Shown here: positions 3,109 to 29,646 of the stretch, piece by piece
How the letters are laid out: the number at the start of each line of letters is the position of its first letter
How positions within the stretch are numbered: position 1 is the first letter of the stretch
NCBI GenBank assembly: GCA_001552015.1
Contig: CP010514.1
Span: 573,888 to 605,887 of the forward strand
Length of the DNA: 32,000 bases
Direction of reading: 5' to 3'
DNA from: Candidatus Nanopusillus acidilobi
GTDB taxonomy: Archaea; Nanobdellota; Nanobdellia; Nanobdellales; Nanobdellaceae
The notes under the pieces: generated by a model
What the model saw: only the letters and a program-made list of their open reading frames with translations
Database searches by the model: none
What the model was told of the DNA's origin: nothing
Made by a program: the position numbers and the translations under genes

Positions 3109-4149
3109 ATGATCAAAATAAGAGAACAGATAAAGGATATAATAATTAATAATTATATTAAAGAAGGTAAAGATCCATTTGATTCTATAATTGGACAAGA
3201 AAATGCAAAGAGACAAATATTATCTTCATTAATTTCTGGAAGAAATATATTAATAATAGGGCCTCCAGGTACTGGAAAAACAACTTTAGCAAAAAATATA
3301 GCAAAATTACTACCAGAAATTGATTTTCCAGATGGAATTCCATTATGGGCTTATGAAGAATTTCCTTTTGTATCTGAAGAATATAGAAAAAAATGGAAAG
3401 AAGGTCCTTTTATAAAAATAAAGGGAGAAGATAGATTTATTAGAATACAGGGTTCTTATGATCTATCTGTAGAAGATCTGATTGGAGATATTGATCCTTC
3501 AAAAGCATTAAAATATGGTATACATTCTTTAGAATCTTTTATACCTGGAAAAATATTTAGAGCACACCATGGTGTATTATTTTTTGATGAAATAAATAGA
3601 GCACCTCCAAAGGTTCAAAATAGTTTATTAGAATTATTAGAAGAAAAGAAAATAACAATTGGGACATATGAATTTCAAATACCATTAGATATAATATTTA
3701 TTGCTACAATGAATCCTGAAAGTTATTACGGAACTGAAAAAATATCAGATGTATTATTAGATAGATTTGATATAATAAATTTAGATTATCCAAAAGATAT
3801 TGAAGAAGAAAAGAAGATTATATTAAAATATGGAAAAAATTTGAATGTTAATTTTCCTGAAAAATTATTGGAATTAACAATTGAATTTATACAAAAATTG
3901 AGAAAAGATGATAAATTAGAAAAGAAACCATCGGTTAGGTCTTCAATTGGTATTTATGAAAAAGCTCAGGCTTTGGCAATAATAGATAAAAAAGAAAATG
4001 TTGAAATTCAACATATATTTGAGGCTTTACTATCAATATTACCACATAGGATAAGATTAAAACCATCATATAAAATGGAAATAAATGAAGAAGAATATAT
4101 AAAAAAGGAGTGGAATTCTTTTATAATAGGGAAAGACTTTCGGAGTTGA
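3109..4149 (+). CDS. AAA+ ATPase, Mg-chelatase ChlI / MoxR-like
   Basis: Walker A is GPPGTGKTT and Walker B is VLFFDEINRA. The sensor region is IFIATMNPE...LLDRFD. It is paired with a downstream VWA protein. Confidence 0.8.
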   Translation: MIKIREQIKDIIINNYIKEGKDPFDSIIGQENAKRQILSSLISGRNILIIGPPGTGKTTLAKNIAKLLPEIDFPDGIPLWAYEEFPFVSEEYRKKWKEGPFIKIKGEDRFIRIQGSYDLSVEDLIGDIDPSKALKYGIHSLESFIPGKIFRAHHGVLFFDEINRAPPKVQNSLLELLEEKKITIGTYEFQIPLDIIFIATMNPESYYGTEKISDVLLDRFDIINLDYPKDIEEEKKIILKYGKNLNVNFPEKLLELTIEFIQKLRKDDKLEKKPSVRSSIGIYEKAQALAIIDKKENVEIQHIFEALLSILPHRIRLKPSYKMEINEEEYIKKEWNSFIIGKDFRS

Positions 4150-4237
4150 TTCAGAAAATTTAATAAGAAGACCTGGAGAATCATTTAAATATAGTTCAAA
4201 GGAAATTAAGAAAAATATAAATGAATTAATTGAAAAA

Positions 4238-5221
4238 ATGATAAAAGAAGGATATCCAATATTTGATATAGATAAAATTATGGAAAATAAAAAAGAATAT
4301 TCTGAGATATTATCAAAGCTAACTGAATATGATGAAAAAAGAATAAGAGAGGATAAGGATTATAGATTTAATAAAGAATTTAAGAAATCATTGAATAAAT
4401 TAAAGGAAATATTAACTAGTGAAGGATATATAGATGAAAATGGAGAATTAACTGAGAAATCTTTAATTGAATATTCTAAATATTTAATAGGAAATATAGA
4501 AAAGGAAATCGAAGGGATATTTGAATATGGAAAATATTTATCAAATTATATTGGAAATGATGAGGAATTTTATAATAAATATTTTAGTATAGGAGATAAA
4601 TATAATAAAATTGATATAAAAGAAACAATAAGAAATTATATAAAGAATAAAGAAGTTACAAGATTTGTTGTTAATGTTAAAAGAGAAAATAAAGGTGGTA
4701 AATATATAATTCTATTAGATGTATCTGGAAGTATGATTGGGGAAAAAATATTTGAAGCAAAAAAAGCTTTAATATTATTAATATCAAAGATATTAGAAGA
4801 TAATAATCTTTTAGATATAATATTATTTAATGATAAGATTGTTAAAGAATATGATAATGTTAGAGGATTAAAGGATATAATAGATATATTAAAAATTATA
4901 CCAAATGGAAGCACAGATATTGCCTTAGCATTTAATTATTTATTAAATAAAGAAGAAAATGGACATATAATATTAATAACCGATGCATTACCAACAAAGG
5001 GAAAAAATCCTGTAGAAAGAACTTTAAAGTTAGCTAAAGAATTAAGCCAATATTATTATATATCAATAATTGGAATACAATTAAATGATGAAGGAGAAAA
5101 AATTGCAAAGGAAATAGTAAAATATGGAAGAGGAAGATTATTTATTTCTAAAGATATAAAAGATTTGAAAAAACTATTATTATTAGAATACGAAATATCT
5201 AGACAACAGATGATAAAATAA
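4238..5221 (+). CDS. von Willebrand factor A (VWA) domain protein, partner of the AAA+ ATPase
   Basis: MIDAS motif ILLDVSGSM plus downstream GSTDI and ILITDALP. The frame is already open from 4130 without an ATG. Confidence 0.8.
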   Translation: MIKEGYPIFDIDKIMENKKEYSEILSKLTEYDEKRIREDKDYRFNKEFKKSLNKLKEILTSEGYIDENGELTEKSLIEYSKYLIGNIEKEIEGIFEYGKYLSNYIGNDEEFYNKYFSIGDKYNKIDIKETIRNYIKNKEVTRFVVNVKRENKGGKYIILLDVSGSMIGEKIFEAKKALILLISKILEDNNLLDIILFNDKIVKEYDNVRGLKDIIDILKIIPNGSTDIALAFNYLLNKEENGHIILITDALPTKGKNPVERTLKLAKELSQYYYISIIGIQLNDEGEKIAKEIVKYGRGRLFISKDIKDLKKLLLLEYEISRQQMIK

Positions 5222-5756
5222 TTTCTTCAGGTTTATTTTCCCCTATATATTTCTTATATTTTCCTGATAATTTCTTTCTTGCAATATCTAGATAGAAACT
5301 TATTCTGTTTGTAAATTCTGGTTTATTGTAATATATTGATAAAATAATATCTTTATAGAATACTTGAGCAGCTCTTGTATATGGTTTTCCAAATGCATGT
5401 CTCATTCCTTGTGAAATTCTATCTGCACCTGCACCATATACCAATGCATGTTCTCTTACAACATGATGAGGGTATTTTCTTACAATAAATAAAAATTCTT
5501 TTACTTCATTTTCTAAATATTTTAATATATTGGTTCTTACAGCTTCTAAGGAATAATCAGATACCTGAACATTATGTAATGCAATTAAATGAGCAGCATA
5601 TTTCCATTGATCCTTTGGTATGTTTATCATTCCCATAATCTGCATCCTTAATTTTGGTACTGGAGCACCTGGAATTTTATTATATGATTTACTATATGAA
5701 AATCTTGTATATGGTCTTTCTATTTCCTTAAATATTCTCCAGGGTCTCTTTGCCAT
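5199..5756 (-). CDS. rpl10e: Ribosomal protein uL16 (L10e)
   Basis: MAKRPWRIFKEIERPYTR... and GAGADRISQGMRHAFGKPYTRAAQV match archaeal L10e. Confidence 0.93.
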   Translation of the reverse strand: MAKRPWRIFKEIERPYTRFSYSKSYNKIPGAPVPKLRMQIMGMINIPKDQWKYAAHLIALHNVQVSDYSLEAVRTNILKYLENEVKEFLFIVRKYPHHVVREHALVYGAGADRISQGMRHAFGKPYTRAAQVFYKDIILSIYYNKPEFTNRISFYLDIARKKLSGKYKKYIGENKPEEIILSSVV

Positions 5757-5757
5757 T

Positions 5758-6237
5758 TTATATCATTTTCTTTAATAATATATTTATATCTTTTCCATAG
5801 TACCCATATGCACCACCCTGACTATATGGAACTTTTATACCTCTTCTTGGATAACCCTTTGATGGAGTTTTTAGTCTAAATATATTTTTTATTTTTGGTA
5901 TTGAATCTAAATCTATTTCATTATTTAATAATTTTTCAACAAATGTATCAATATCCATATTTAATGTTTGCTTAATATAATCTTCAGTTAATCTTTTATT
6001 TCCTTCCAATCTTCCTCTCTTTAATAATAATTCCTTTAATGTTTCCTTATCTATTTCCCCCCATGCAACCCATGGTTCTACTTTTTTTATCATTCCTCTT
6101 ATATCTTTTGTATCCTTCATTATTACTGCATAATTATTTCTTCTTAATCTTAACAAATATAATGTATCTTTTATTTCTTTATTTGCCTTAACAGTTCCTT
6201 TTATCCTTACAATTGCTAATAATCCCATTTTATACAA
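5758..6237 (-). CDS. rpl30p: Ribosomal protein uL30
   Basis: LAIVRIKGTVKANKEIKDTLYLLRLRRNNYAVIM is the L30/L7 signature. It lies directly downstream of uS5. Confidence 0.9.
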   Translation of the reverse strand: MYKMGLLAIVRIKGTVKANKEIKDTLYLLRLRRNNYAVIMKDTKDIRGMIKKVEPWVAWGEIDKETLKELLLKRGRLEGNKRLTEDYIKQTLNMDIDTFVEKLLNNEIDLDSIPKIKNIFRLKTPSKGYPRRGIKVPYSQGGAYGYYGKDINILLKKMI

Positions 6238-6988
6238 ATCCTATCTTTAATCCTGAATATTTGGCATATTCCTCTTTAATTCTATATCCTACTGTTTTTC
6301 TTAATGCATTATAAACTGCCATTGCAAAATTATATCTTTTTCTAGTTTGTCCAAAAGATTTCATCCATAGATCTTTTATACCAGCTAATCTAAATATCTT
6401 TTTCATTTCTTCAGGTGCTACCAATCCAACTCCTCTTGGAGCTGGTAATAATACAACTCTTACAGAACCAAAAGATCCTTCAACTTTAAATGGTAAAGAA
6501 TGGGGAGTTTTAAATGCACATTCCCATGATCCACAACCTCTTGCAATCGGTATAATATTCAATTTTGCATTTCTTAACGCTTTTTCCATACATAAAGCAA
6601 TATCAGAAGACTTTCCAATCCCTACTCCAACATATCCATTTTCATTTCCAACAACAGCAACAGAAACCCATGATGTTTTATTACCTTCAGCAGTTTTTCT
6701 TTGAACCATTTTTACAAATTTTGGCCTTCTATATTTACCTTTAGACAATGATAATCTAATATATTCATATTTTAAATCTGGTATTAATGCATCTACAATT
6801 TCTGGTTCTAATATTTTATATCCATTTTTAAATACTTGCTCAATTGAATTTATTTTTCCTTCCTTTACCAATTTACCAAGATTTGTTTTTGGATTCCAAG
6901 ATTCTATATTAAACTTTTGCGATCCTATTTTTTCTAAAGCCTCCTGTTCCTTTTTTACTTCTTCAGCTTCTTTTTGTTCTTCTACCAT
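6230..6988 (-). CDS. rps5p: Ribosomal protein uS5
   Basis: The dsRBD and S5 C-terminal domain are present: VAVVGNENGYVGVGIGKS...ALRNAKLNIIPI. Confidence 0.95.
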   Translation of the reverse strand: MVEEQKEAEEVKKEQEALEKIGSQKFNIESWNPKTNLGKLVKEGKINSIEQVFKNGYKILEPEIVDALIPDLKYEYIRLSLSKGKYRRPKFVKMVQRKTAEGNKTSWVSVAVVGNENGYVGVGIGKSSDIALCMEKALRNAKLNIIPIARGCGSWECAFKTPHSLPFKVEGSFGSVRVVLLPAPRGVGLVAPEEMKKIFRLAGIKDLWMKSFGQTRKRYNFAMAVYNALRKTVGYRIKEEYAKYSGLKIGFV

Positions 6989-7146
6989 TTTCTTTTAAAT
7001 TTATATGACCATACATAGGCCCTTATTTTACTACTTCTTCCAAATCCACAATGTGAGCAATATCCCTTATCAGGATTATATGTTTTTCTACCACATCTTC
7101 TGCATATAACATGATTTACTTTGTTTGTACCACCCAATCTTGTCAT
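6982..7146 (-). CDS. rpl37e: Ribosomal protein eL37 (L37e), 54 aa, absent from the supplied ORF track
   Basis: My translation of the minus strand is MTRLGGTNKVNHVICRRCGRKTYNPDKGYCSHCGFGRSSKIRAYVWSYKFKRKW. The CxxC...CxxC zinc ribbon and ...K.R.Y.W match eL37. The stop overlaps the uS5 start (AAATGGTAG). Confidence 0.85.
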   Translation of the reverse strand: MTRLGGTNKVNHVICRRCGRKTYNPDKGYCSHCGFGRSSKIRAYVWSYKFKRKW

Positions 7147-7201
7147 TTAATGATAATATAAAGAAATATTTTTAAAGTAAATAAGGAAGTTAGAATAATC
7201 A

Positions 7202-8260
7202 ATGAATATAGATATATCAATAATAATACCAACATTAAATGAAAAAGAAAATATTAATGAATTAGTAAAAAGAATAAGAGAAAGCTTAAATGATATAAAT
7301 TATGAAATAATTTTTGTAGATGATGGATCAAAAGATGGAACAATTGAAGAAATAGAAAAATTAAAAAAGGAATATAAAAATATAAAACTTGTTGAAAGAG
7401 GATATAAAAAAGGTTTATCATCTGCTTTTTTAGATGGAGTAAAATATTCTAATGGAAAATATGTTGTATTAATGGATGCTGATCTACAACATCCTCCAGA
7501 ATTATTAAAAACAATGTATGAAAAGGCTTTGGAGAGTTATGATTTAGTTATTGCATCTAGATATATTAAAGGAGGAAAAATAGAGAATTGGAATATTTTA
7601 AGAGAATTTATATCAAAAACAGCAATATTTATTGCATATATTTTTCTACCAGAAACATTAAAAGTAAAGGATCCATTAAGTGGATATTTTTTAATAAAGA
7701 AAGATCTGTTAAATAATTTTAATGTTTCTGATCCATTTAGTTATAAGGTTCTATTAGATATATTAGTAAAAGTAAATTATAATAAATTAATAGAAATTCC
7801 ATATACATTTGAAGAAAGAAAACATGGAAAATCTAAATTGGGCAAAAAAGTAATTTTTTCATATTTAAAGCAGGTTTTCTTATTATTTAATATTTCTCAA
7901 TTTATAAAGTTCTATTTAGTAGGATTATCTGGAATTTTTATTAACCTATTAACTTTATACTTATTGATCTCTTATCTTCCATTTTATATTTCTTCTTTTT
8001 TAGCAATTTTAGTTTCAATTATATGGAATTTCATCCTAAATGATTTGTTTGTATTTAAAATTAAGAAGAAAAAACTTTGGAAAAGATTTTTATTATTTGT
8101 TGGAGGAAGAGGCTTATTATCAAAACCTGTTCAATATTTATCGGCCTTATTATTTTATTATGTATTTGAAATAAACTACTTGATATCACAACTTCTTGCA
8201 ATATTTATTGCTTCTATAATTAATTGGGTCTTTACAAAAGGTATTGTTTATGAAAAGTAA
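7202..8260 (+). CDS. Family-2 glycosyltransferase (dolichol/polyprenol-phosphate mannosyltransferase-like) fused to a GtrA-like membrane domain
   Basis: SIIIPTLNEKENI, VDDGSKDGT and DADLQHPP form the GT2/DPM1 core. The C-terminal ~120 aa has four hydrophobic helices of the GtrA type. Confidence 0.85.
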   Translation: MNIDISIIIPTLNEKENINELVKRIRESLNDINYEIIFVDDGSKDGTIEEIEKLKKEYKNIKLVERGYKKGLSSAFLDGVKYSNGKYVVLMDADLQHPPELLKTMYEKALESYDLVIASRYIKGGKIENWNILREFISKTAIFIAYIFLPETLKVKDPLSGYFLIKKDLLNNFNVSDPFSYKVLLDILVKVNYNKLIEIPYTFEERKHGKSKLGKKVIFSYLKQVFLLFNISQFIKFYLVGLSGIFINLLTLYLLISYLPFYISSFLAILVSIIWNFILNDLFVFKIKKKKLWKRFLLFVGGRGLLSKPVQYLSALLFYYVFEINYLISQLLAIFIASIINWVFTKGIVYEK

Positions 8261-22444: not shown

Positions 22445-24055
22445 ATGAGATTACAATCTGAAATGATTATAGCATTAATATTGTTAATAGTAGGAGCTCT
22501 TGCTACTGTAATAATATACAATATAATATCTCCAAATTTAAATATAATAAATCCTTCTGGACAGGAAATTTCAAGATCTTTAGAATTAAATTTCCAATTA
22601 TTAGATTATTTTATAGTAAATAATACATTATATGCATATGTAAAACCCTCAGAACCAGTTAATTATTCTCAAGTATTTGCAATTTTAAATGATAGATTAG
22701 TTAATGTTTATCCTTATAATTCAAATGGATCAATTGTAAATCCATATAATAATGGTTTATTAATTGTTGTTGCAAATTTATCTCAAATTCCTCCAGATCA
22801 AAATGGAAATTATAAATTAGAAGTTGGATTAGAAAATGATATAATTGGAGTATTTGATATAAAATATATTTCTAATTCATTAATTAATTATTTTCAACCT
22901 CCAATTGTTTTTAATATATCGGTCATATCAACCTCCCTTACATGTCAATTACCATATTTACCTTTAATATTATACAATAGTCAATCTATTCCAACTCCTT
23001 CTCCTTTTCAACAGGATATTGCAATATGTAATGGAACAATTAATATTGGTAATAGTTTTGCATATGTAAATAATGCAACATTATTTAATGAAATAAATAG
23101 AAATGGATCTAATGTATACTTTACAACAACCTGTAATAGTACCCCAAATATATATTCATGGTATGAAGGTCAATTAATTAATGGAAGTACATATTGTGAT
23201 GTTTGGTGGATAAATTTATCTAATGGAATTCCTGCTAATTCAAATATTACAATATATATGTATATAGGAAATAGTAGTGATAATTATTATTCCCAATATT
23301 ATCCATATGTTGGTACTTCTCCTCAAGTAATTTCAGGATATGATAATGGTCAAGATGTATTTATAGCATATGGATATTTTAACAATACATTTGATGGATG
23401 GAGTAGATATGTTTATTCAGGATCATTTTCTCCAACAGCAACTTCAAATGGTATTGAAATGATAAATAATAATGGTGGTGAAGGTACATATATTTTACCT
23501 CCAAATAATGAAAATATTCCAGAAATACCTTTAATTGTTGAAGAAGCCTGGTATCATACTCAAAGTGCAGATGCAAATACTATATCCTTATTTGGAAATA
23601 CAAATAGTCAGGTAGATGTAACTAATATAGGAGGTACAGACGGTGGTTCCACACCAGCATCTAGTTCATCTACATTTGTACAATTTGAATATTATGGTGG
23701 ACAACCATATGTTATGTTAAAATCTGCAGTAACAGATCAATATTTAAGTTATACATCTTTCCCAACATCTGGTGGAACTGTTTATTCATATTTAATAGTT
23801 AATTCTACATATGCACAAACAGGATATTATATTTATAATTCTAATCAAGTATGGGCTCCTTTAACATTATTAGATACATATAATATAAATTATAATGGAT
23901 ATACATATTATAATTTAAATTATAATCCTTTCCAATATGGTACATTAGAAATTGGTGCAGGAACTGGTGGAGCTGCTTCATACCAATATGAAGAATGGGT
24001 TGTTGCTAGAGCATATCCTCCAAATGGTGTAATGCCTTCAATTTATATTGGTTAA
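22445..24055 (+). CDS. Large pilin-anchored surface protein: N-terminal hydrophobic pilin/archaellin-like segment plus DUF2341-like plus ConA/LamG-like lectin domain
   Basis: The N-terminus is MRLQSEMIIALILLIVGALATVIIYN. The middle segment ...NVYFTT...YSWYEG...CDVWWINLSNGIPANSNITIYMYIGNSS resembles the DUF2341 signature (..YWIE...VWVKVP.IPA...IYMYYGN). The C-terminus ...FDGW...YEEWVVARAYPPNG resembles the lectin-fold tail of such proteins. N-x-S/T sequons are very dense. Confidence 0.6.
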   Translation: MRLQSEMIIALILLIVGALATVIIYNIISPNLNIINPSGQEISRSLELNFQLLDYFIVNNTLYAYVKPSEPVNYSQVFAILNDRLVNVYPYNSNGSIVNPYNNGLLIVVANLSQIPPDQNGNYKLEVGLENDIIGVFDIKYISNSLINYFQPPIVFNISVISTSLTCQLPYLPLILYNSQSIPTPSPFQQDIAICNGTINIGNSFAYVNNATLFNEINRNGSNVYFTTTCNSTPNIYSWYEGQLINGSTYCDVWWINLSNGIPANSNITIYMYIGNSSDNYYSQYYPYVGTSPQVISGYDNGQDVFIAYGYFNNTFDGWSRYVYSGSFSPTATSNGIEMINNNGGEGTYILPPNNENIPEIPLIVEEAWYHTQSADANTISLFGNTNSQVDVTNIGGTDGGSTPASSSSTFVQFEYYGGQPYVMLKSAVTDQYLSYTSFPTSGGTVYSYLIVNSTYAQTGYYIYNSNQVWAPLTLLDTYNINYNGYTYYNLNYNPFQYGTLEIGAGTGGAASYQYEEWVVARAYPPNGVMPSIYIG

Positions 24056-24154: not shown

Positions 24155-25087
24155 CTAATGAGTTTCCCAGCCAACAGTTTTTTCAAATCCTAAAATTTTC
24201 TTAATATAACTTTCTAACAATAATTTTTCTTTATTTGTTATTTTACATAAATTATGGGCCATTTTTAATCCTCTTGGATAAGATTTCTGATCATAAATAA
24301 CTTCTTTTATTATTTCTTTAAATTTTTCTTTTCCAATTTTTTCCATTCCTTCTAATCTATATATATGATCATTATATCTTGCCCTAAAGTATATTAAATA
24401 TAAATTTTTGTTACAAAATGGACAATTTGGAATTTTTGAACCTAAAAATTCTTTTATTTGTTTTTCTTTAATATCTGTATAAAATATTTCTGATGGAAAA
24501 ATTCTCATCAATGTTAGTAAATCTGATCTACCTGTTTTTATTATATCTAAATTTAATATTCTCTTTGCAACTGCCAATAAATTTCCATTATTTATTAAAT
24601 ATTCAAAGTTTTCTAAAAATTCTTTTCTTCTATTTTCAACATTCTCATCATAAAAATTATACAGAAATTTTGAATATAATATGGAATCTGATATTATTGA
24701 TCCATCTATAAATATATATCTATCAGAATATTTTCTTGCCAATCTATATTCTAAATTTTTTGATAATAATTCTGAAATATCTTGAATGTCGAAATTTTCA
24801 TTATTCATCGATCTTATAAAAGATGTTTCGAAAAATTCTATATCTTCTATACTTTCATATATATCATCAGAAACAATTACTGCTCTTGAATATACATAAC
24901 TATAAGGTCCGACAATACCATTTACAAGAGAAGAGTCTATAAATCCATATTTTTTCTTTTCTTTTATCTCAATATTATCCAAATCTAATTTTTCAATATT
25001 AATTTTTTCTTCCTTATTATTTTCTTCATCTTTTTTTATTTGATTGATTTTTTGATTTATCTTTTCTAATAAATTTTTTGTTAACAT
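24155..25087 (-). CDS. nurA: NurA-domain 5'-3' nuclease (DNA end-resection)
   Basis: YGFIDSS and IFIDGSI are the two Asp-containing NurA motifs, followed by LAVAKR and a C-terminal MAHN. The stop codon abuts the 3' end of tRNA-His. Confidence 0.6.
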   Translation of the reverse strand: MLTKNLLEKINQKINQIKKDEENNKEEKINIEKLDLDNIEIKEKKKYGFIDSSLVNGIVGPYSYVYSRAVIVSDDIYESIEDIEFFETSFIRSMNNENFDIQDISELLSKNLEYRLARKYSDRYIFIDGSIISDSILYSKFLYNFYDENVENRRKEFLENFEYLINNGNLLAVAKRILNLDIIKTGRSDLLTLMRIFPSEIFYTDIKEKQIKEFLGSKIPNCPFCNKNLYLIYFRARYNDHIYRLEGMEKIGKEKFKEIIKEVIYDQKSYPRGLKMAHNLCKITNKEKLLLESYIKKILGFEKTVGWETH

Positions 25088-25123
25088 AAAAATATTTTTA
25101 TATTAAATTATATTAAATATGTA

Positions 25124-25183
25124 TCCCCCGCTTAGACGAACCAATATGAAAAGATGAGTATTGGTAACGATGGGCGGGGGACA
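25124..25183 (+). ncRNA. H/ACA-box guide-RNA-like hairpin (single hairpin plus ACA)
   Basis: A 7-bp G:C-rich lower stem (25125-25131 / 25174-25180) encloses a symmetric 9+9-nt internal loop. A 6-bp upper stem CCAAUA/UAUUGG carries the 12-nt apical loop UGAAAAGAUGAG, whose GA motifs are K-loop-like. ACA at 25181-25183 lies 16 nt after the upper stem. Confidence 0.5.
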
Positions 25184-25188
25184 TTTAT

Positions 25189-25272
25189 GCCGCGGTGCCC
25201 GAGCGGACCAAGGGGTATGGCTGGAGACCATATCCCCGAAAGGGGACGTGGGTTCAAATCCCACCCGCGGCG
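25189..25272 (+). tRNA. tRNA-Ser (GGA), class II
   Basis: Acceptor GCCGCGG/CCGCGGC plus G73. The anticodon stem UAUGG/CCAUA carries loop CUGGAGA. The variable arm is UCCCCGAAAGGGGAC and the T arm is GUGGG-UUCAAAU-CCCAC. A T-tract follows. Confidence 0.95.
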
Positions 25273-25408
25273 GATTTTGCTTAAACTATTTTCATCTGTA
25301 AGTAAATTATTAATTACGTAAATCTTTAGTTAAAACCATACACTATAGGCAATCTATCTTAAAGGTGATAAAGTAAAATTTATAAATGTTTACTATTATT
25401 ATTATTAT

Positions 25409-26215
25409 ATGGTCATGACAACAATAAAAGATACATTTCAAAAGGCTACGAATCCATTTCGTAAAGCAATAGATGATAGATGGCAGTATCTTTCAGATGA
25501 CGATAGAAGAGAAATAGCAAGATATCTAGCAGATAAGAAAGATATAATAGAACGTTACTTTTATACTATCAATAAGAATAATAGTGATAAAGTACTAGAT
25601 TCTATTGAACAATTTGCACGTCTTAAAGGATCTTCTATAGATCTACCTACTATATCTCAGTATTTTGATATGCTAGAAAACCTTGATAAAATAATAGAAG
25701 AAATAGATAAAGGTTTCTTCAATTCTTTACCCAAATATAATAATGTAGTAAAACCAAACAACTATTATATGGAAATCGCATTTGACATAGATGGAAATCC
25801 AAAAGATCAAAAAGGAACTTTAGTTGATATATTAAAAAAGCTAATAGGAAACGTCGGAGCTAGAGGTTATCCTATATCTTATTATAACGGAACTGACAAC
25901 TTTCCAATACAATATTATATGGAATTCTATCCAGATCGAACTCACATAAGAATTTTCATTCATACATCCTATATACCCCCAGCTATAGTAGGTTATTTAC
26001 TTTATGAGCTAAACAATATTAAAGGAAAAGAATCAATAATACCTCCAAGCGGACAACAATATCATATTATTAATAATGTAGCAGGAATTATTAATAATCG
26101 CATAGGAATAGACATAGATCAACGTATAGCTTCTTATGCCGGCCAAGCTCTTTGGCAATATAGTTTCTTATATAGATTTTTTAGGGTAGAAGAAATTCCG
26201 TATTGGATTACTTAA
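25409..26215 (+). CDS. Orphan 268-aa protein with atypical (foreign-looking) codon usage
   Basis: A long ORF flanked by 136-nt and 181-nt noncoding spacers. Six in-frame CGN Arg codons occur (25460, 25553, 25619, 25937, 26099, 26123), whereas Arg elsewhere in the window is almost always AGA/AGG. Acidic motifs are IAFDIDGNP and IGIDIDQRI. Confidence 0.6.
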   Translation: MVMTTIKDTFQKATNPFRKAIDDRWQYLSDDDRREIARYLADKKDIIERYFYTINKNNSDKVLDSIEQFARLKGSSIDLPTISQYFDMLENLDKIIEEIDKGFFNSLPKYNNVVKPNNYYMEIAFDIDGNPKDQKGTLVDILKKLIGNVGARGYPISYYNGTDNFPIQYYMEFYPDRTHIRIFIHTSYIPPAIVGYLLYELNNIKGKESIIPPSGQQYHIINNVAGIINNRIGIDIDQRIASYAGQALWQYSFLYRFFRVEEIPYWIT

Positions 26216-26396
26216 AATATCATAAAGAATTTTAGAAATCAGAAACAACTTTTTCAGTATTTCAGATAAAAATTTTTTAATTTCTTAAAATATTGTCAGA
26301 ACTTATATCTTCTTCTTTAATTAAATCTAAATTGTTTTATTAAATACTTTGCTATAATTTTTATTTTTTAATAATTTTATAGATTATATATATTTT

Positions 26397-28388
26397 ATGA
26401 CAGATCATTTTAAAGCAATATTTAAAACAGATCTTAATAGAAATCTCAATTTTACTGAAGAAACTATTGAAATTTTAGATAATAAAATTTCCATATATGA
26501 TGATAATAAAAACAAAATATTAGAAATCGATAATGTAGAAGAACTAAATATAGAATATGGAATAAGTATATGTAAATTAATTGCAATAGACAAAGATGGA
26601 AAAATATTTGAAGTTGCATATTTTACAAAGAAAAAAGCGGATAATATACAAAAAATTGTAGATGAATTTAATTTAAAAGTAAAAACGGAAATAATTGAAA
26701 AAGAAGAAAAGAAAAGATCTAAAAAAGAAATATATGGATTTTTAATACAAATTATTAAAAAATATAAGAAAGAACTTATCTTAATTACTATTATCTTTAT
26801 TATAGGTACTATAATAAGTCTAATTCCTCCTTATTTAACAGCTTTATTAATAAACGAGGTTCTTATATCAAAAATACCATCACTGGAAGTATTTCTTACA
26901 ATAATTTTCTTAATGCTAATATCTTCTATTATTTCTAGATTTTCATATTTAATAGGTAATTCTTTATTAAATATTACACAGACAAAAATCAGAAAGGGAA
27001 TAAGAGAGTTATTATTAGAACATATAATTTTTAATGATGTTTCTTTTATAGAAAAATACTCTCCTTCTACATTAATAGCAAGATATCAAACGGATATAGA
27101 GGAAATAGATGGTTTTATTGCATTTGATCTGCCTTTTATAATTATAGATACTTTAATGCTTGTTGGGACCCTTATTATACTTTTTTTATTATTACCATTT
27201 TTAGCAATACCTATAATAATTGCAGCATTTGTTATTTTTGTTCTTTTCATAATTTATGAAAGAAAAATTAGAAGAATTGATAAAAAAGCAAGAATAAAGT
27301 CTGTAGATGCCGAAACTCAAGTAAATAATGTTCTAAGGAACTTTTATAGCATTAAGTTATTCTCAAAAGAAAAAGAAGAATATGAAAAAACAAAAAATAT
27401 AATAAACTCTTGGTATTCGACAGATACTCAGGTAGGAAAACTTATTACAATAAGAGGTGAACTATTATTTTTAATAATAGATTTGATTACTGTTTTTATA
27501 TGGTATATGGGTGGAATTTTTGTAATTAATAATCTAATTAAATTGGGTATATTGGTTGCTTTTGTAACTTATATTTTATATATTTATAGCCCACTCCAGA
27601 CATATGAAAGGTTTTTTGGGGATATTCCAAAAGCTTTAGTTTCTGCTGAAAGAATATTAGAATTATTAGAAGATAAGCCAAAAATATTAAATAAAGAAAA
27701 TGCTTTAAAACCAAATATGATTGATGAAATAAAATTTGTTAATGTTACTTTTGGATATGAACCAGGTTTTCCTGTATTAAAAAATATTTCTTTTACAATA
27801 AAACCTAAAGAAAAGGTTGCAATTGTTGGAAAAAATGGAGCTGGAAAGACAACAATTGCTAAATTATTATTAAGATTTTATGACATAAATGATGGAGAAA
27901 TATTAATTGGAAATACAAATATAAAAGATATAGATTTAAAATATCTTAGGGAAAAAATTTCATATTTATCACAAGAACCTGAAATTTTTAATAATACTAT
28001 TAGATACAATATATCTTATGGAAATCAAAATGCAAATGAAATAGAAATAATTAGAGTTTGCAAAATTGTAAATATACATGATGATATAATTAAATTACCT
28101 TTTGCATATGATACCCCAGCAGGAGAAGAGGGAACAAAACTATCTAGCGGCCAAAAACAAAAAATAACAATTGCAAGAAATATAATAAAAAATCCTGATA
28201 TATTTATATTTGATGAATTAACATCAAATATTGATTCAAAGAGCAGAGAACAAATTTTTTCTGCTATATTAAATATTTCAAAAGATAAAACTTTAATATA
28301 TATTTCACATAATTTATCGGAAGTATTAAATATGGATAGAGTTATTGTTATAGAAGACGGAAAAATTGTTGAAGAAGGAAAAACCTGA
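26397..28388 (+). CDS. ABC exporter, fused TMD-NBD (MsbA/MdlB type) with an extra ~110-aa N-terminal soluble domain; 3' end displaced by a frameshift
   Basis: Six TM segments are present. Walker A is GKNGAGKTT, the signature is LSSGQKQKITIARN, Walker B is IFIFDELTSNID and the H-loop is ISHN. The normal C-terminal ...DDLIKKKGKFYELFKNQ is encoded in the next frame. Confidence 0.9.
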   Translation: MTDHFKAIFKTDLNRNLNFTEETIEILDNKISIYDDNKNKILEIDNVEELNIEYGISICKLIAIDKDGKIFEVAYFTKKKADNIQKIVDEFNLKVKTEIIEKEEKKRSKKEIYGFLIQIIKKYKKELILITIIFIIGTIISLIPPYLTALLINEVLISKIPSLEVFLTIIFLMLISSIISRFSYLIGNSLLNITQTKIRKGIRELLLEHIIFNDVSFIEKYSPSTLIARYQTDIEEIDGFIAFDLPFIIIDTLMLVGTLIILFLLLPFLAIPIIIAAFVIFVLFIIYERKIRRIDKKARIKSVDAETQVNNVLRNFYSIKLFSKEKEEYEKTKNIINSWYSTDTQVGKLITIRGELLFLIIDLITVFIWYMGGIFVINNLIKLGILVAFVTYILYIYSPLQTYERFFGDIPKALVSAERILELLEDKPKILNKENALKPNMIDEIKFVNVTFGYEPGFPVLKNISFTIKPKEKVAIVGKNGAGKTTIAKLLLRFYDINDGEILIGNTNIKDIDLKYLREKISYLSQEPEIFNNTIRYNISYGNQNANEIEIIRVCKIVNIHDDIIKLPFAYDTPAGEEGTKLSSGQKQKITIARNIIKNPDIFIFDELTSNIDSKSREQIFSAILNISKDKTLIYISHNLSEVLNMDRVIVIEDGKIVEEGKT

Positions 28389-28962
28389 TGATTTAATTAA
28401 GAAAAAGGGAAAATTCTATGAATTATTTAAAAATCAAATAGAAAATTTAGAAAAAATAGAAAATGTTAATCAAAAATCAGAATTAGTCAATTTAAATATA
28501 ATAAAAGATAAAAATATAATAATAGAACCTTCTAATAGACCTAGCAGAGTAAATATTATATATAATGGTAAAAAACATGAAAACCTTATGCCAAAACTTT
28601 TATTCCCAATATCAAATCCAAAATTTGTAGGATTTTACGATGATAATTTCAATGAAATATTTTTATTAGAAGATTATACAATTTTAGACAAAGATTCTAA
28701 AAAAATATTAGAAAATGCAATAAAATATAATTCTATAATATATAAAATAGAAAAAATAAAGAAGATAGATATTGAAGGAGGATCTATATTATTAAATGCT
28801 CTTATAAATAATAAAGAATTGGAGATAAAAATAATTTCTCCAGAAAATCTTTTTATTTTTGAAGATAAGGTTTTATTTATTGATGAAAATGGTAACCTAT
28901 ATCAAATAATATTAAAAGATTTGGACAAGAGGAGCTTAAAGGAATTAAATAAAATAATATAA
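28366..28962 (+). CDS. DUF1854-like domain (ABC-associated), probably the continuation of the ABC exporter ORF
   Basis: The first ~25 residues are the missing ABC NBD tail. After that, LLFPISNPKFVGFYDDNFNEIFLLEDYTILDKDSKKILENAIKYN resembles the DUF1854 pattern (R.FP.S.P...I......E...I.DL..LD..S...LE). Confidence 0.6.
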   Translation: MLKKEKPDDLIKKKGKFYELFKNQIENLEKIENVNQKSELVNLNIIKDKNIIIEPSNRPSRVNIIYNGKKHENLMPKLLFPISNPKFVGFYDDNFNEIFLLEDYTILDKDSKKILENAIKYNSIIYKIEKIKKIDIEGGSILLNALINNKELEIKIISPENLFIFEDKVLFIDENGNLYQIILKDLDKRSLKELNKII

Positions 28963-29049
28963 TATCTTTATAATTTTAAATTTCAAAAAACAAATAGTTA
29001 AAATTTAAATCGAATTAAATTTAAAAAATTACTTATAAAAATATCTTTA

Positions 29050-29646
29050 ATGGCTACAGGTCCTACTTACGTAGTAAAATTTAGAAGGAGAAGGGAAAAT
29101 ATTACAGATTATAGAAGGAGACTAAAGTTATTAAAATCAAAGAAACCAAGATTTGTTGTTAGAAGATTTTTAAATAATATATTAGCACAAATAACATTAT
29201 ATAATGAAAATGGAGATAAAACATTACTAACAGTCCATTCAAAAATATTAGAAAAGAAATATGGATGGAAAGGACATAGAGGAAATTTACCAACAGCATA
29301 TTTAGTCGGTTTATTAGCAGGTCTAGAAGCAAAGAAAAGAGGAATTGAAGAAGCAATATTAGATATTGGAAGATATAGATCTACAAAAGGAAATTCATTA
29401 TATGCTGCACTAAAAGGTGCAATTGATGCTGGATTAAAGATTCCATATAATGAGGAAATTTTACCTTCTGAAGATAGAATAAAAGGTGAACATATAAAAA
29501 ATTATGCATTAATGTTAAAAGAAAAAAATCCTGAAAAATATAATAAGCAATTTTCAAGATATTTAAAAAATGGATTAGAACCTGAAAAAATAGTAGAGCA
29601 TTTTGAAGAGGTAAAAAATAAAATATTAAAAGAATATGGCATCTGA
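29050..29646 (+). CDS. rpl18p: Ribosomal protein uL18 (L5e)
   Basis: [39 protein letters not shown] is a canonical archaeal L18 N-terminus. Confidence 0.93.

Follow-up and report, generated by a model that had tools for sequence, protein, structure and literature searches.

The final 32 kb of the single-contig genome of Candidatus Nanopusillus acidilobi (605,887 bp, 24.2% GC; G000 in the coordinates below), hereafter the window, contain a hypervariable open reading frame (ORF) of 268 amino acids on the plus strand (25409-26215), which we call X268. X268 is an allelic cassette that occupies a fixed site in hot-spring populations, where at least 29 alleles fall into three deep classes. X268 is an intact, genus-restricted, hypervariable and recombining gene of a small tRNA-linked block. 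We consider it probable that it has a part to play in recognition or conflict; our commitment to that role is made with modest confidence. Nanoarchaeota have genomes that are among the smallest of cellular organisms and are often regarded as streamlined and static. The X268 locus is a small-scale opposite of this picture, intact in every copy and yet diversified and shuffled far beyond its neighbours.

A hypervariable gene in a fixed slot

X268 lies directly 3′ of tRNA-Ser(GGA) (25188-25273, plus strand; ARAGORN and Rfam), as the first-pass annotation of this DNA had reported. The tRNA gene forms the left boundary of both the accessory block and the hypervariable stretch. A scan of metagenomes recovered 46 X268 loci from hot-spring samples, and in all but two of them the gene order is NurA, tRNA-Ser, X268, a gene for an ABC exporter fused to DUF1854 (ABC/DUF1854) and rpl18; of the 45 loci that cover X268, 43 have it in this slot. 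By tblastn, identity to the window is 89-95% for NurA, 81-93% for the ABC gene, 89-96% for rpl18 and 34-95% for X268; the tRNA-Ser gene is 96-99% identical in 37 loci. In a sliding-window comparison the trough in nucleotide identity was limited to 25301-26200. Many metagenome contigs begin at or just before the tRNA, as expected at assembly-graph forks. Contig depth in four DNA runs was much lower over 25337-26291 than over the flanks, an observation that we do not count as evidence.

An uninterrupted X268 frame of 252-298 codons is present in 45 of the 45 loci that cover the gene, which contradicts the earlier description of the ORF as a relic. The alleles number 29 when grouped at 90% identity and form nine classes at 70% and three at 55%. 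Upstream, the 135-nt spacer (25274-25408, plus strand) was compared by alignment of 11 loci. It contains a TATA box, TTTATAAAT (25379-25387), that is invariant in every allele examined; its spacing of 21 nt to the ATG suggests a promoter of the leaderless type. The rest of the spacer occurs in two or more allelic forms that track the N-terminal type of X268. At the 3′ end of the gene, the window allele has a run of six T residues followed by AGG (26177-26185, plus strand), where four close alleles, when aligned, have seven T residues followed by AG and hence a TAG stop. Loss of one T therefore makes the X268 of the window 10 residues longer (268 vs. ~258 amino acids). The form with the extra T is found on metagenome contigs, and contigs from run X5 agree with the six T residues of the window. 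The read-through residues are strain-specific and have a predicted local distance difference test score (pLDDT) below 50, and pLDDT is low over residues 261-268.

The X268 family is restricted to one Nanopusillus subclade. A word-indexed protein search returned 33 clusters homologous to X268 at 39-95% identity, and HMMER, run against 1.84 billion representative proteins, gave nine matches, of which seven, with E values of 1e-10 or lower, were members of the family or fragments. The remaining two were P0039 (1,424 amino acids, matched over residues 20-96), a false lead that proved repetitive and of low complexity, and a weak match of 84 amino acids. When 185,579 species genomes were scanned, the family was found in three, all of them from Nanopusillus or Nanobsidianus, the names borne by the relatives of this organism; a profile search of 21 genomes of the order detected it in four, which belong to a single genus. 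No X268 homologue was found in hosts or in other nanoarchaeal genera among these proteins and species genomes, nor was one found in IMG/VR or in phage and plasmid collections. This distribution argues against acquisition from the host, as the first-pass annotation had proposed.

X268 is single-copy in this genome, and it is absent from two complete genomes of the genus and from two close relatives (G002 and G012). Searches with Pfam, NCBIfam, PHROGs and PADLOC recognised no family for X268, the PHROGs, PADLOC and NCBIfam matches being at chance level. The label "orphan" is accurate insofar as no named family contains the protein, and misleading insofar as at least 48 homologous loci exist.

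Recombination, substitution rates and codon usage

Nonsynonymous (dN) and synonymous (dS) divergence was estimated gene-wide by the pairwise Nei-Gojobori method for 91 pairs from 14 loci. For X268 the medians were dN 0.396, dS 0.561 and dN/dS (omega) 0.71, with omega ranging from 0.30 to 1.01; for the adjacent ABC gene they were 0.082, 0.320 and 0.24, respectively. The genome-wide ratio of nonsynonymous to synonymous polymorphism (pN/pS) in a related population is 0.159 (Jarett et al. 2018, PMC6142677). In 54 of the 91 pairs the dS of X268 was more than 1.5 times that of the ABC gene and in five pairs it was less than 0.5 times, as between the window and locus L017, where dS was 0.020 in X268 vs. 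0.171 in the ABC gene. The two dS values correlate weakly across pairs (Spearman rho 0.34), and the divergence of X268 alleles is decoupled from that of the flanks.

Recombination is also apparent within the gene. Over residues 1-52, 53-110 and 111-258, identity to the window is 41, 79 and 90% for locus L020 and 81, 31 and 42% for locus L041, opposite patterns which indicate that an N-terminal module of about 52 residues recombines independently. We read these data as the product of old allele lineages that have been shifted among backgrounds by recombination, under protein constraint that is weak or selection that is partly positive. Exchange of alleles would proceed by homologous recombination, anchored on the left by the conserved tRNA and on the right by the conserved 3′ end of the gene and the genes downstream. 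The alleles would in turn be maintained by diversifying or balancing selection. We infer such selection because dN/dS is about 0.7, vs. 0.24 in the neighbouring gene, and because dS in many pairs lies above that of the flanks; allele divergence in excess of the flanks, combined with recombination, is what is expected of a locus under diversifying or balancing selection. Diversity-generating retroelements, which are recognised by a reverse transcriptase and a template repeat near the variable region, were considered as a source of the variation and rejected: the genome has no RVT_1 domain, no part of the gene has a second copy within 5 kb, and the variation is gene-wide.

Codon usage provides a further signature. 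Six of the 14 arginine codons of X268 are CGN (cgt four times, cga and cgc once each), the highest representation in any real gene of the genome (binomial probability ~1e-7). Genome-wide, CGN accounts for 110 of 5,903 arginine codons (1.9%), and the other 31 ORFs of the window contain four CGN codons combined. The six codons and their avoidance by other genes had both been noted from the window, and the effect is stronger genome-wide than the window alone could show. The codon-adaptation index of X268, built on the genome's own usage, is 0.527 and falls in the 2.6th percentile, in agreement with the earlier claim of atypical codon usage. The accompanying claim of a raised G+C content did not hold to the same extent: GC (29.7%, 89th percentile) and GC at third codon positions (17.5%, 92nd percentile) are high, yet inside the range of the genome.

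Across 34 alleles of the X268 family, CGN makes up about 30% of arginine codons, and GC content is 25-31% where the background has 22-29%. Since the CGN bias has been kept through divergence down to 35% identity, it is a poor fit to a recent import undergoing amelioration. Five other hypothetical genes in the genome have three or more CGN codons (G000 146677-147417, 411740-412417, 412584-413180, 553300-554559 and 554822-556102). All five were tested; they are poorly adapted, patchily present and 25-70% identical in the five closest relatives. Because the CGN bias is both family-wide and found in other hypervariable orphan genes, we infer that CGN-rich, low-adaptation usage marks a recombining flexible gene pool and not recent transfer from the host. 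CGN arginine codons may accordingly serve as a cheap marker of fast-evolving flexible genes in such AT-rich genomes.

The accessory block at two tRNA genes

The block at the 3′ end of tRNA-Ser(GGA) consists of X268, which is proximal to the tRNA, a vapBC-type toxin-antitoxin pair and ABC/DUF1854. In relatives, the gap between X268 and the ABC gene measures 530-940 nt in 18 of the 21 gaps examined and holds a minus-strand PIN toxin, a CcdA-like antitoxin or both (Pfam PIN 8.9e-9, CcdA 4.4e-10). The pair is intact in a few loci (L046:1475-2117, minus strand, and also L026, L057 and L060) and decayed in most, with degraded copies in about 15 others. The corresponding 181-nt spacer of the window (26216-26396) is the scar of a deleted vapBC cassette: by blastn, it comprises the two ends of the relatives' vapBC segment joined at ~26328, a clean deletion in the lineage of the window. 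The spacers on either side of X268 measure 135 and 181 nt (the first-pass annotation gave 136 and 181), and although they are long they are not exceptional, gaps of at least 135 nt making up ~24% and those of at least 181 nt ~15% of all non-coding gaps under a crude ORF call.

The ABC exporter fused to DUF1854 (26397-28962, plus strand; Pfam) is a single ORF of ~854-867 amino acids in relatives and is split in the window by a frameshift in an A-run near 28379-28383. Some metagenome contigs have one A fewer at 28379, which would restore a single frame. The right boundary of the block falls within 28963-29049, just before rpl18 (29050-29646; Pfam Ribosomal_L5e), as determined by alignment and pattern search. 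In locus L009 a gene for an ATPase of ~500 amino acids with AAA_14 and DUF4143 domains (L009:4930-6429, minus strand) lies between DUF1854 and rpl18, and it is found at the same place in L006, L008, L010, L022, L031, L032, L047, L051 and L055; the window is without it, making this a second presence/absence polymorphism of the block. Of the two close relatives that have no X268, G002 holds only a PIN gene in the slot, and in G012 the slot is empty. DUF1854 (PF08909) also matches a control genome, that of Sulfolobus acidocaldarius, whose lineage is related to known hosts, and the ABC/DUF1854 gene might be shared with host-type archaea.

Comparison with relatives identified an empty form of the site and a second site of insertion. 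In G001 and G010 the block is missing and tRNA-Ser stands 36 nt from rpl18; neither X268 nor DUF1854 was found in those genomes. A string in the boundary segment at 28963-29049 of the window, TTAAATTTAAA, resembles one found immediately after tRNA-Ser where G001 and G010 have the empty site. Neither the right boundary of the block in the window nor the other tRNA-Ser loci showed a tRNA-like repeat. A short-sided joint from 25272 to 29123 was also seen, which may derive from an empty-site relative and is not counted as evidence.

The second site is seen in contig L038, whose flanks correspond to 323.6-329.3 kb of this genome, their proteins being 84-96% identical. An insertion of 1,961 bp begins directly after the final base of tRNA-Asn(GTT) and ends directly before the string CTAT(C/T)CATTATAAT. 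It contains an X268 allele of 61% identity, a vapB remnant and an ABC/DUF1854 ORF that internal deletion has reduced to 131 amino acids. In this genome the tRNA end and the string adjoin each other, so that the site is empty to the base. Immediately downstream of its tRNA-Asn, L038 opens with GATTTAATTTAAA, the bases found elsewhere behind tRNA-Ser. Since tRNA-Ser(GGA) and tRNA-Asn(GTT) resemble each other over their last ~30 nt, the match between L038 and the tRNA-Ser loci already begins within the tRNA gene. Five nucleotides from the right junction of L038 there is a degenerate tRNA-3′-like string, ACTTCAAATCCAACCAG, which resembles tRNA-Ser more than tRNA-Asn. It is unlikely that L038 is an assembly chimera, given that only ~7 bases at the left junction are identical in the two tRNA loci and that the synteny on the right is exact to the base.

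Judged by its sequence, then, contig L038 places the block at the 3′ end of tRNA-Asn(GTT) in at least one related genome. Transfer could have been effected by an integrase acting in trans or by recombination on the shared tRNA end. The earlier suggestion of a tRNA-associated mobile element is borne out, in a modified form, by the position of the block at the 3′ end of tRNA-Ser and by a second site, at tRNA-Asn, with its empty counterpart; the replication gene and the host origin that formed part of the same suggestion are not.

Other features were noted around the slot. A surface protein gene two genes upstream (22445-24055) also diverges clearly more from locus to locus (64-84% identity) than do NurA and the tRNAs, so that two variable genes stand with conserved ones between them. 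In a more distant species (L013, G005:C1:659000-668961, positions 3179-7294), NurA is followed by a 1,320-amino-acid paralogue of the lectin-headed surface protein and then by tRNA-Ser(GCT) instead of tRNA-Ser(GGA), and ABC/DUF1854 is found elsewhere, at 331 kb in G005. Just upstream of tRNA-Ser in the window (25064-25188), Rfam gave a sub-threshold match to the H/ACA-box RNA HgcG (21.6 bits vs. a gathering score of 77, E 0.0025).

Protein architecture, alternative explanations and known systems

AlphaFold2, supplied with 26 homologues, modelled X268 with pLDDT 88 and a predicted template-modelling score (pTM) of 0.85; the N-terminal domain alone gave pLDDT 88 and pTM 0.76. The predicted structure comprises a six-helix domain (residues 1-100), a ferredoxin-like beta-alpha-beta-beta-alpha-beta domain (117-240) and a C-terminal helix (241-262). 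ESM Atlas yielded no usable feature match, and its own model of X268 was poor (pTM 0.28). As inspection by eye found no long hydrophobic stretch, the protein is probably cytoplasmic. Where a residue is conserved in at least 85% of sequences it is mostly Tyr, Leu, Ile, Pro or Gly, and the few conserved polar positions are K135, R152, E122 and Y243. Among 35 sequences, Y158 and Y159 are invariant, K135 is present in 34, and Y243, D235 and D237 are present in 33 each, with Asn or Glu in place of D235 or D237 in the residual sequences. The net charge and isoelectric point of either domain vary among alleles from acidic to basic, hence no case is made for DNA binding or DNA mimicry.

Fold searches gave matches at the level of noise. 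With Foldseek, nothing below E 0.04 was found in PDB or BFVD. VIA-align gave Z 7.3 to designed ferredoxin folds and ACT domains, Z 7.8 to OspF (3i0u; root-mean-square deviation 3.4 over 127 residues), Z 7.0 to SpvC (2q8y; 128 residues) and Z 5.8 to a chain of the LxmKY lexapeptide dehydratase complex; Z values below 8 are the stated noise level of this tool, and absence from its match list does not exclude a fold. For the N-terminal domain alone, the best Z was 6.2 (AAA+ lid domains, the N-terminal domain of the pol-alpha B subunit, and DnaD), below the noise expected of helical bundles. A sequence-profile search of PDB returned histidine racemase at E 0.0024 over 100 residues, a match that no other evidence supports.

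X268 would most likely be a binding or recognition protein at a conflict interface and not an enzyme, a proposal given alongside the predominance of aromatic, aliphatic, Gly and Pro residues, with few polar ones, among the positions that the family conserves. Its task may be to exclude nanoarchaeal viruses or rival elements or to confer immunity to them, or it may be a partner-specific symbiosis factor. The gene is a concrete and testable candidate for strain-specific interaction with a virus, a rival element or the host, in an organism amenable to co-culture.

Several observations weigh against this interpretation. Sequence and fold give no clue to function, the best Z values (7.3-7.8) being at noise level. 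The dN/dS of X268 is never clearly above 1, so that relaxed constraint could account for its fast protein evolution, and the gene is dispensable, since the close relatives G002 and G012 are without it. No integrase or recombinase is encoded among the genes of the block (X268, PIN, CcdA-like antitoxin and ABC/DUF1854, with AAA_14/DUF4143 as an optional member). The junctions of the tRNA-Asn insertion rest on the single 12-kb contig L038, and L039, which has the same allele, ends short of both. Finally, the link between CGN codons and hypervariability is based on six genes and is not genome-wide.

The strongest competitor, which we nevertheless consider unlikely, is that a dispensable X268 drifts under relaxed constraint, with weak purifying selection and ordinary recombination and no role in conflict. 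It is favoured by a dN/dS that extends from 0.3 to 1.0, by the two relatives in which a lone PIN gene or nothing occupies the slot, and by poor codon adaptation, which fits low expression. However, relaxation is difficult to square with 45 of 45 frames that stay open in a genome of 24% GC, where stops arise easily, with an invariant promoter, or with a conserved hydrophobic and aromatic core and confident AlphaFold2 models. It also leaves unexplained the 54 of 91 pairs in which the dS of X268 is more than 1.5 times that of the gene next to it.

The block has moved between two tRNA genes without a visible integrase. A more far-reaching proposal, speculative and somewhat more doubtful than relaxed constraint, is that X268 serves as variable payload, or else as the mobility or exclusion protein, in a new class of integrase-less miniature modules that target tRNA 3′ ends in Nanoarchaeota. 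Its alleles would then circulate among strains as a distinct CGN-rich pool and determine with which viruses, rival elements or hosts a strain is compatible.

That X268 is specifically the block's own mobility or maintenance factor, a novel recombination or integration-accessory protein, is very unlikely. Integrases are usually encoded beside their attachment site, and at each of the two insertion sites X268 is the gene that adjoins the tRNA. Every other gene of the block has an assigned family, no integrase is present, and Y243, where the C-terminal helix begins, is conserved (33 of 35) with D235-x-D237 on a ferredoxin-like core. HUH endonucleases combine an HUH metal-binding motif on a strand of such a core with a catalytic Tyr on the next helix. 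X268 was rejected as one of these, for the core and Y243 are present but a conserved pair of His residues is not. More generally, no HUH motif and no residue set of tyrosine or serine recombinases is conserved, no matching fold was found, and alleles that range in net charge from acidic to basic speak against a constant surface for binding DNA. In G002, moreover, X268 is deleted and the rest of the block retained.

Still less credible is an effector with the phosphothreonine-lyase fold of OspF and SpvC that acts on host proteins, even though it would explain arms-race variability. The widest structural matches are to OspF (Z 7.8) and SpvC (Z 7.0), with the LxmKY chain at Z 5.8, and all 35 sequences keep Y158 and Y159 and 34 of them K135. 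But these scores lie at noise level, equalled by generic ferredoxin-like designs (Z 7.3), and hhalign of the family against SpvC gave 0.13%. Phosphothreonine lyases employ a catalytic Lys and His, and X268 has no conserved His, no Pfam VRP3 signal and no secretion signal noticed on inspection by eye.

The least probable explanation, and one largely refuted, is that of the first-pass annotation, in which X268 was a relic replication gene of the archaeo-eukaryotic primase (AEP) or PrimPol type, from a plasmid or virus and ultimately from a crenarchaeal host. The three motif strings on which it relied are present, ~55 residues apart (given as ~50): AFDIDG, THIRIFIH and IGIDID fall on beta1, beta3 and beta4 of the alpha/beta domain, and so on neighbouring strands, where they resemble AEP motifs I-III. 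The block is, in addition, tRNA-linked and was once mobile. Conservation does not follow the motifs, however. In motif I, D126 and D128 are both kept in about a third of 26 aligned homologues and are otherwise replaced by G, S, N, K, A or E (AFGINGD, AFDVAGN, AFSIEGK); in motif II neither H178 nor H185 is conserved (TSIRIFI, FFIRFFI, ITVELFI). Only motif III, with D235 and D237 in 33 of 35 sequences each, persists, and by itself it is not diagnostic of AEP. Comparison of the X268 family with 23 nanoarchaeal PriS sequences by hhalign gave 2.4%, with the matched stretch outside the catalytic domain. Six-frame scans of the genome with PF01896 and PF09250 left the X268 ORF untouched, and hmmscan of the window's X268 gave no AEP match. 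One of 26 family members matched PF01896 at E 0.032, which is chance level, PF01896 being one of 16 unrelated families that surfaced below threshold. There is no AEP among the listed Foldseek or VIA matches, and the genome has a PF01896 primase gene of its own (G000 498463-498909). No homologue was found in hosts, viruses or plasmids in the collections searched, and every copy is intact. We reject membership of X268 in the AEP, PriS and PrimPol proteins included.

The X268 block resembles the tRNA-targeting elements of archaea, such as the SSV-type and pNOB8-type elements of Sulfolobales, in its insertion exactly at a tRNA 3′ end, in the precise empty site of a relative, in a possible degenerate copy of the tRNA 3′ end at the far junction (L038) and in its toxin-antitoxin cargo. 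It differs from them in being only 2-5 kb long, without integrase, replication or structural genes; the copy in the window has no recognisable att repeat, and no relative was found in viral or plasmid collections. Within the same genome, the other fast-evolving orphan cassette families are like X268 in having no family, in being CGN-rich and poorly adapted, and in their patchy presence, with 25-51% identity among close relatives. They form tandem or stacked arrays of paralogues, whereas X268 is single-copy and bound to a tRNA-linked block.

Replacement-type flexible genomic islets, of which the minimal mobile elements of Neisseria are an example, share with X268 conserved syntenic flanks and deep allele classes at one site, together with mosaic alleles, an allele history decoupled from that of the flanks and contigs that often break at the conserved edge. 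Unlike the surface-polysaccharide or restriction genes of those islets, the occupant here is one soluble-looking orphan protein, its site abuts a tRNA gene, and the block that encloses the cassette has in its own right moved to a second tRNA.

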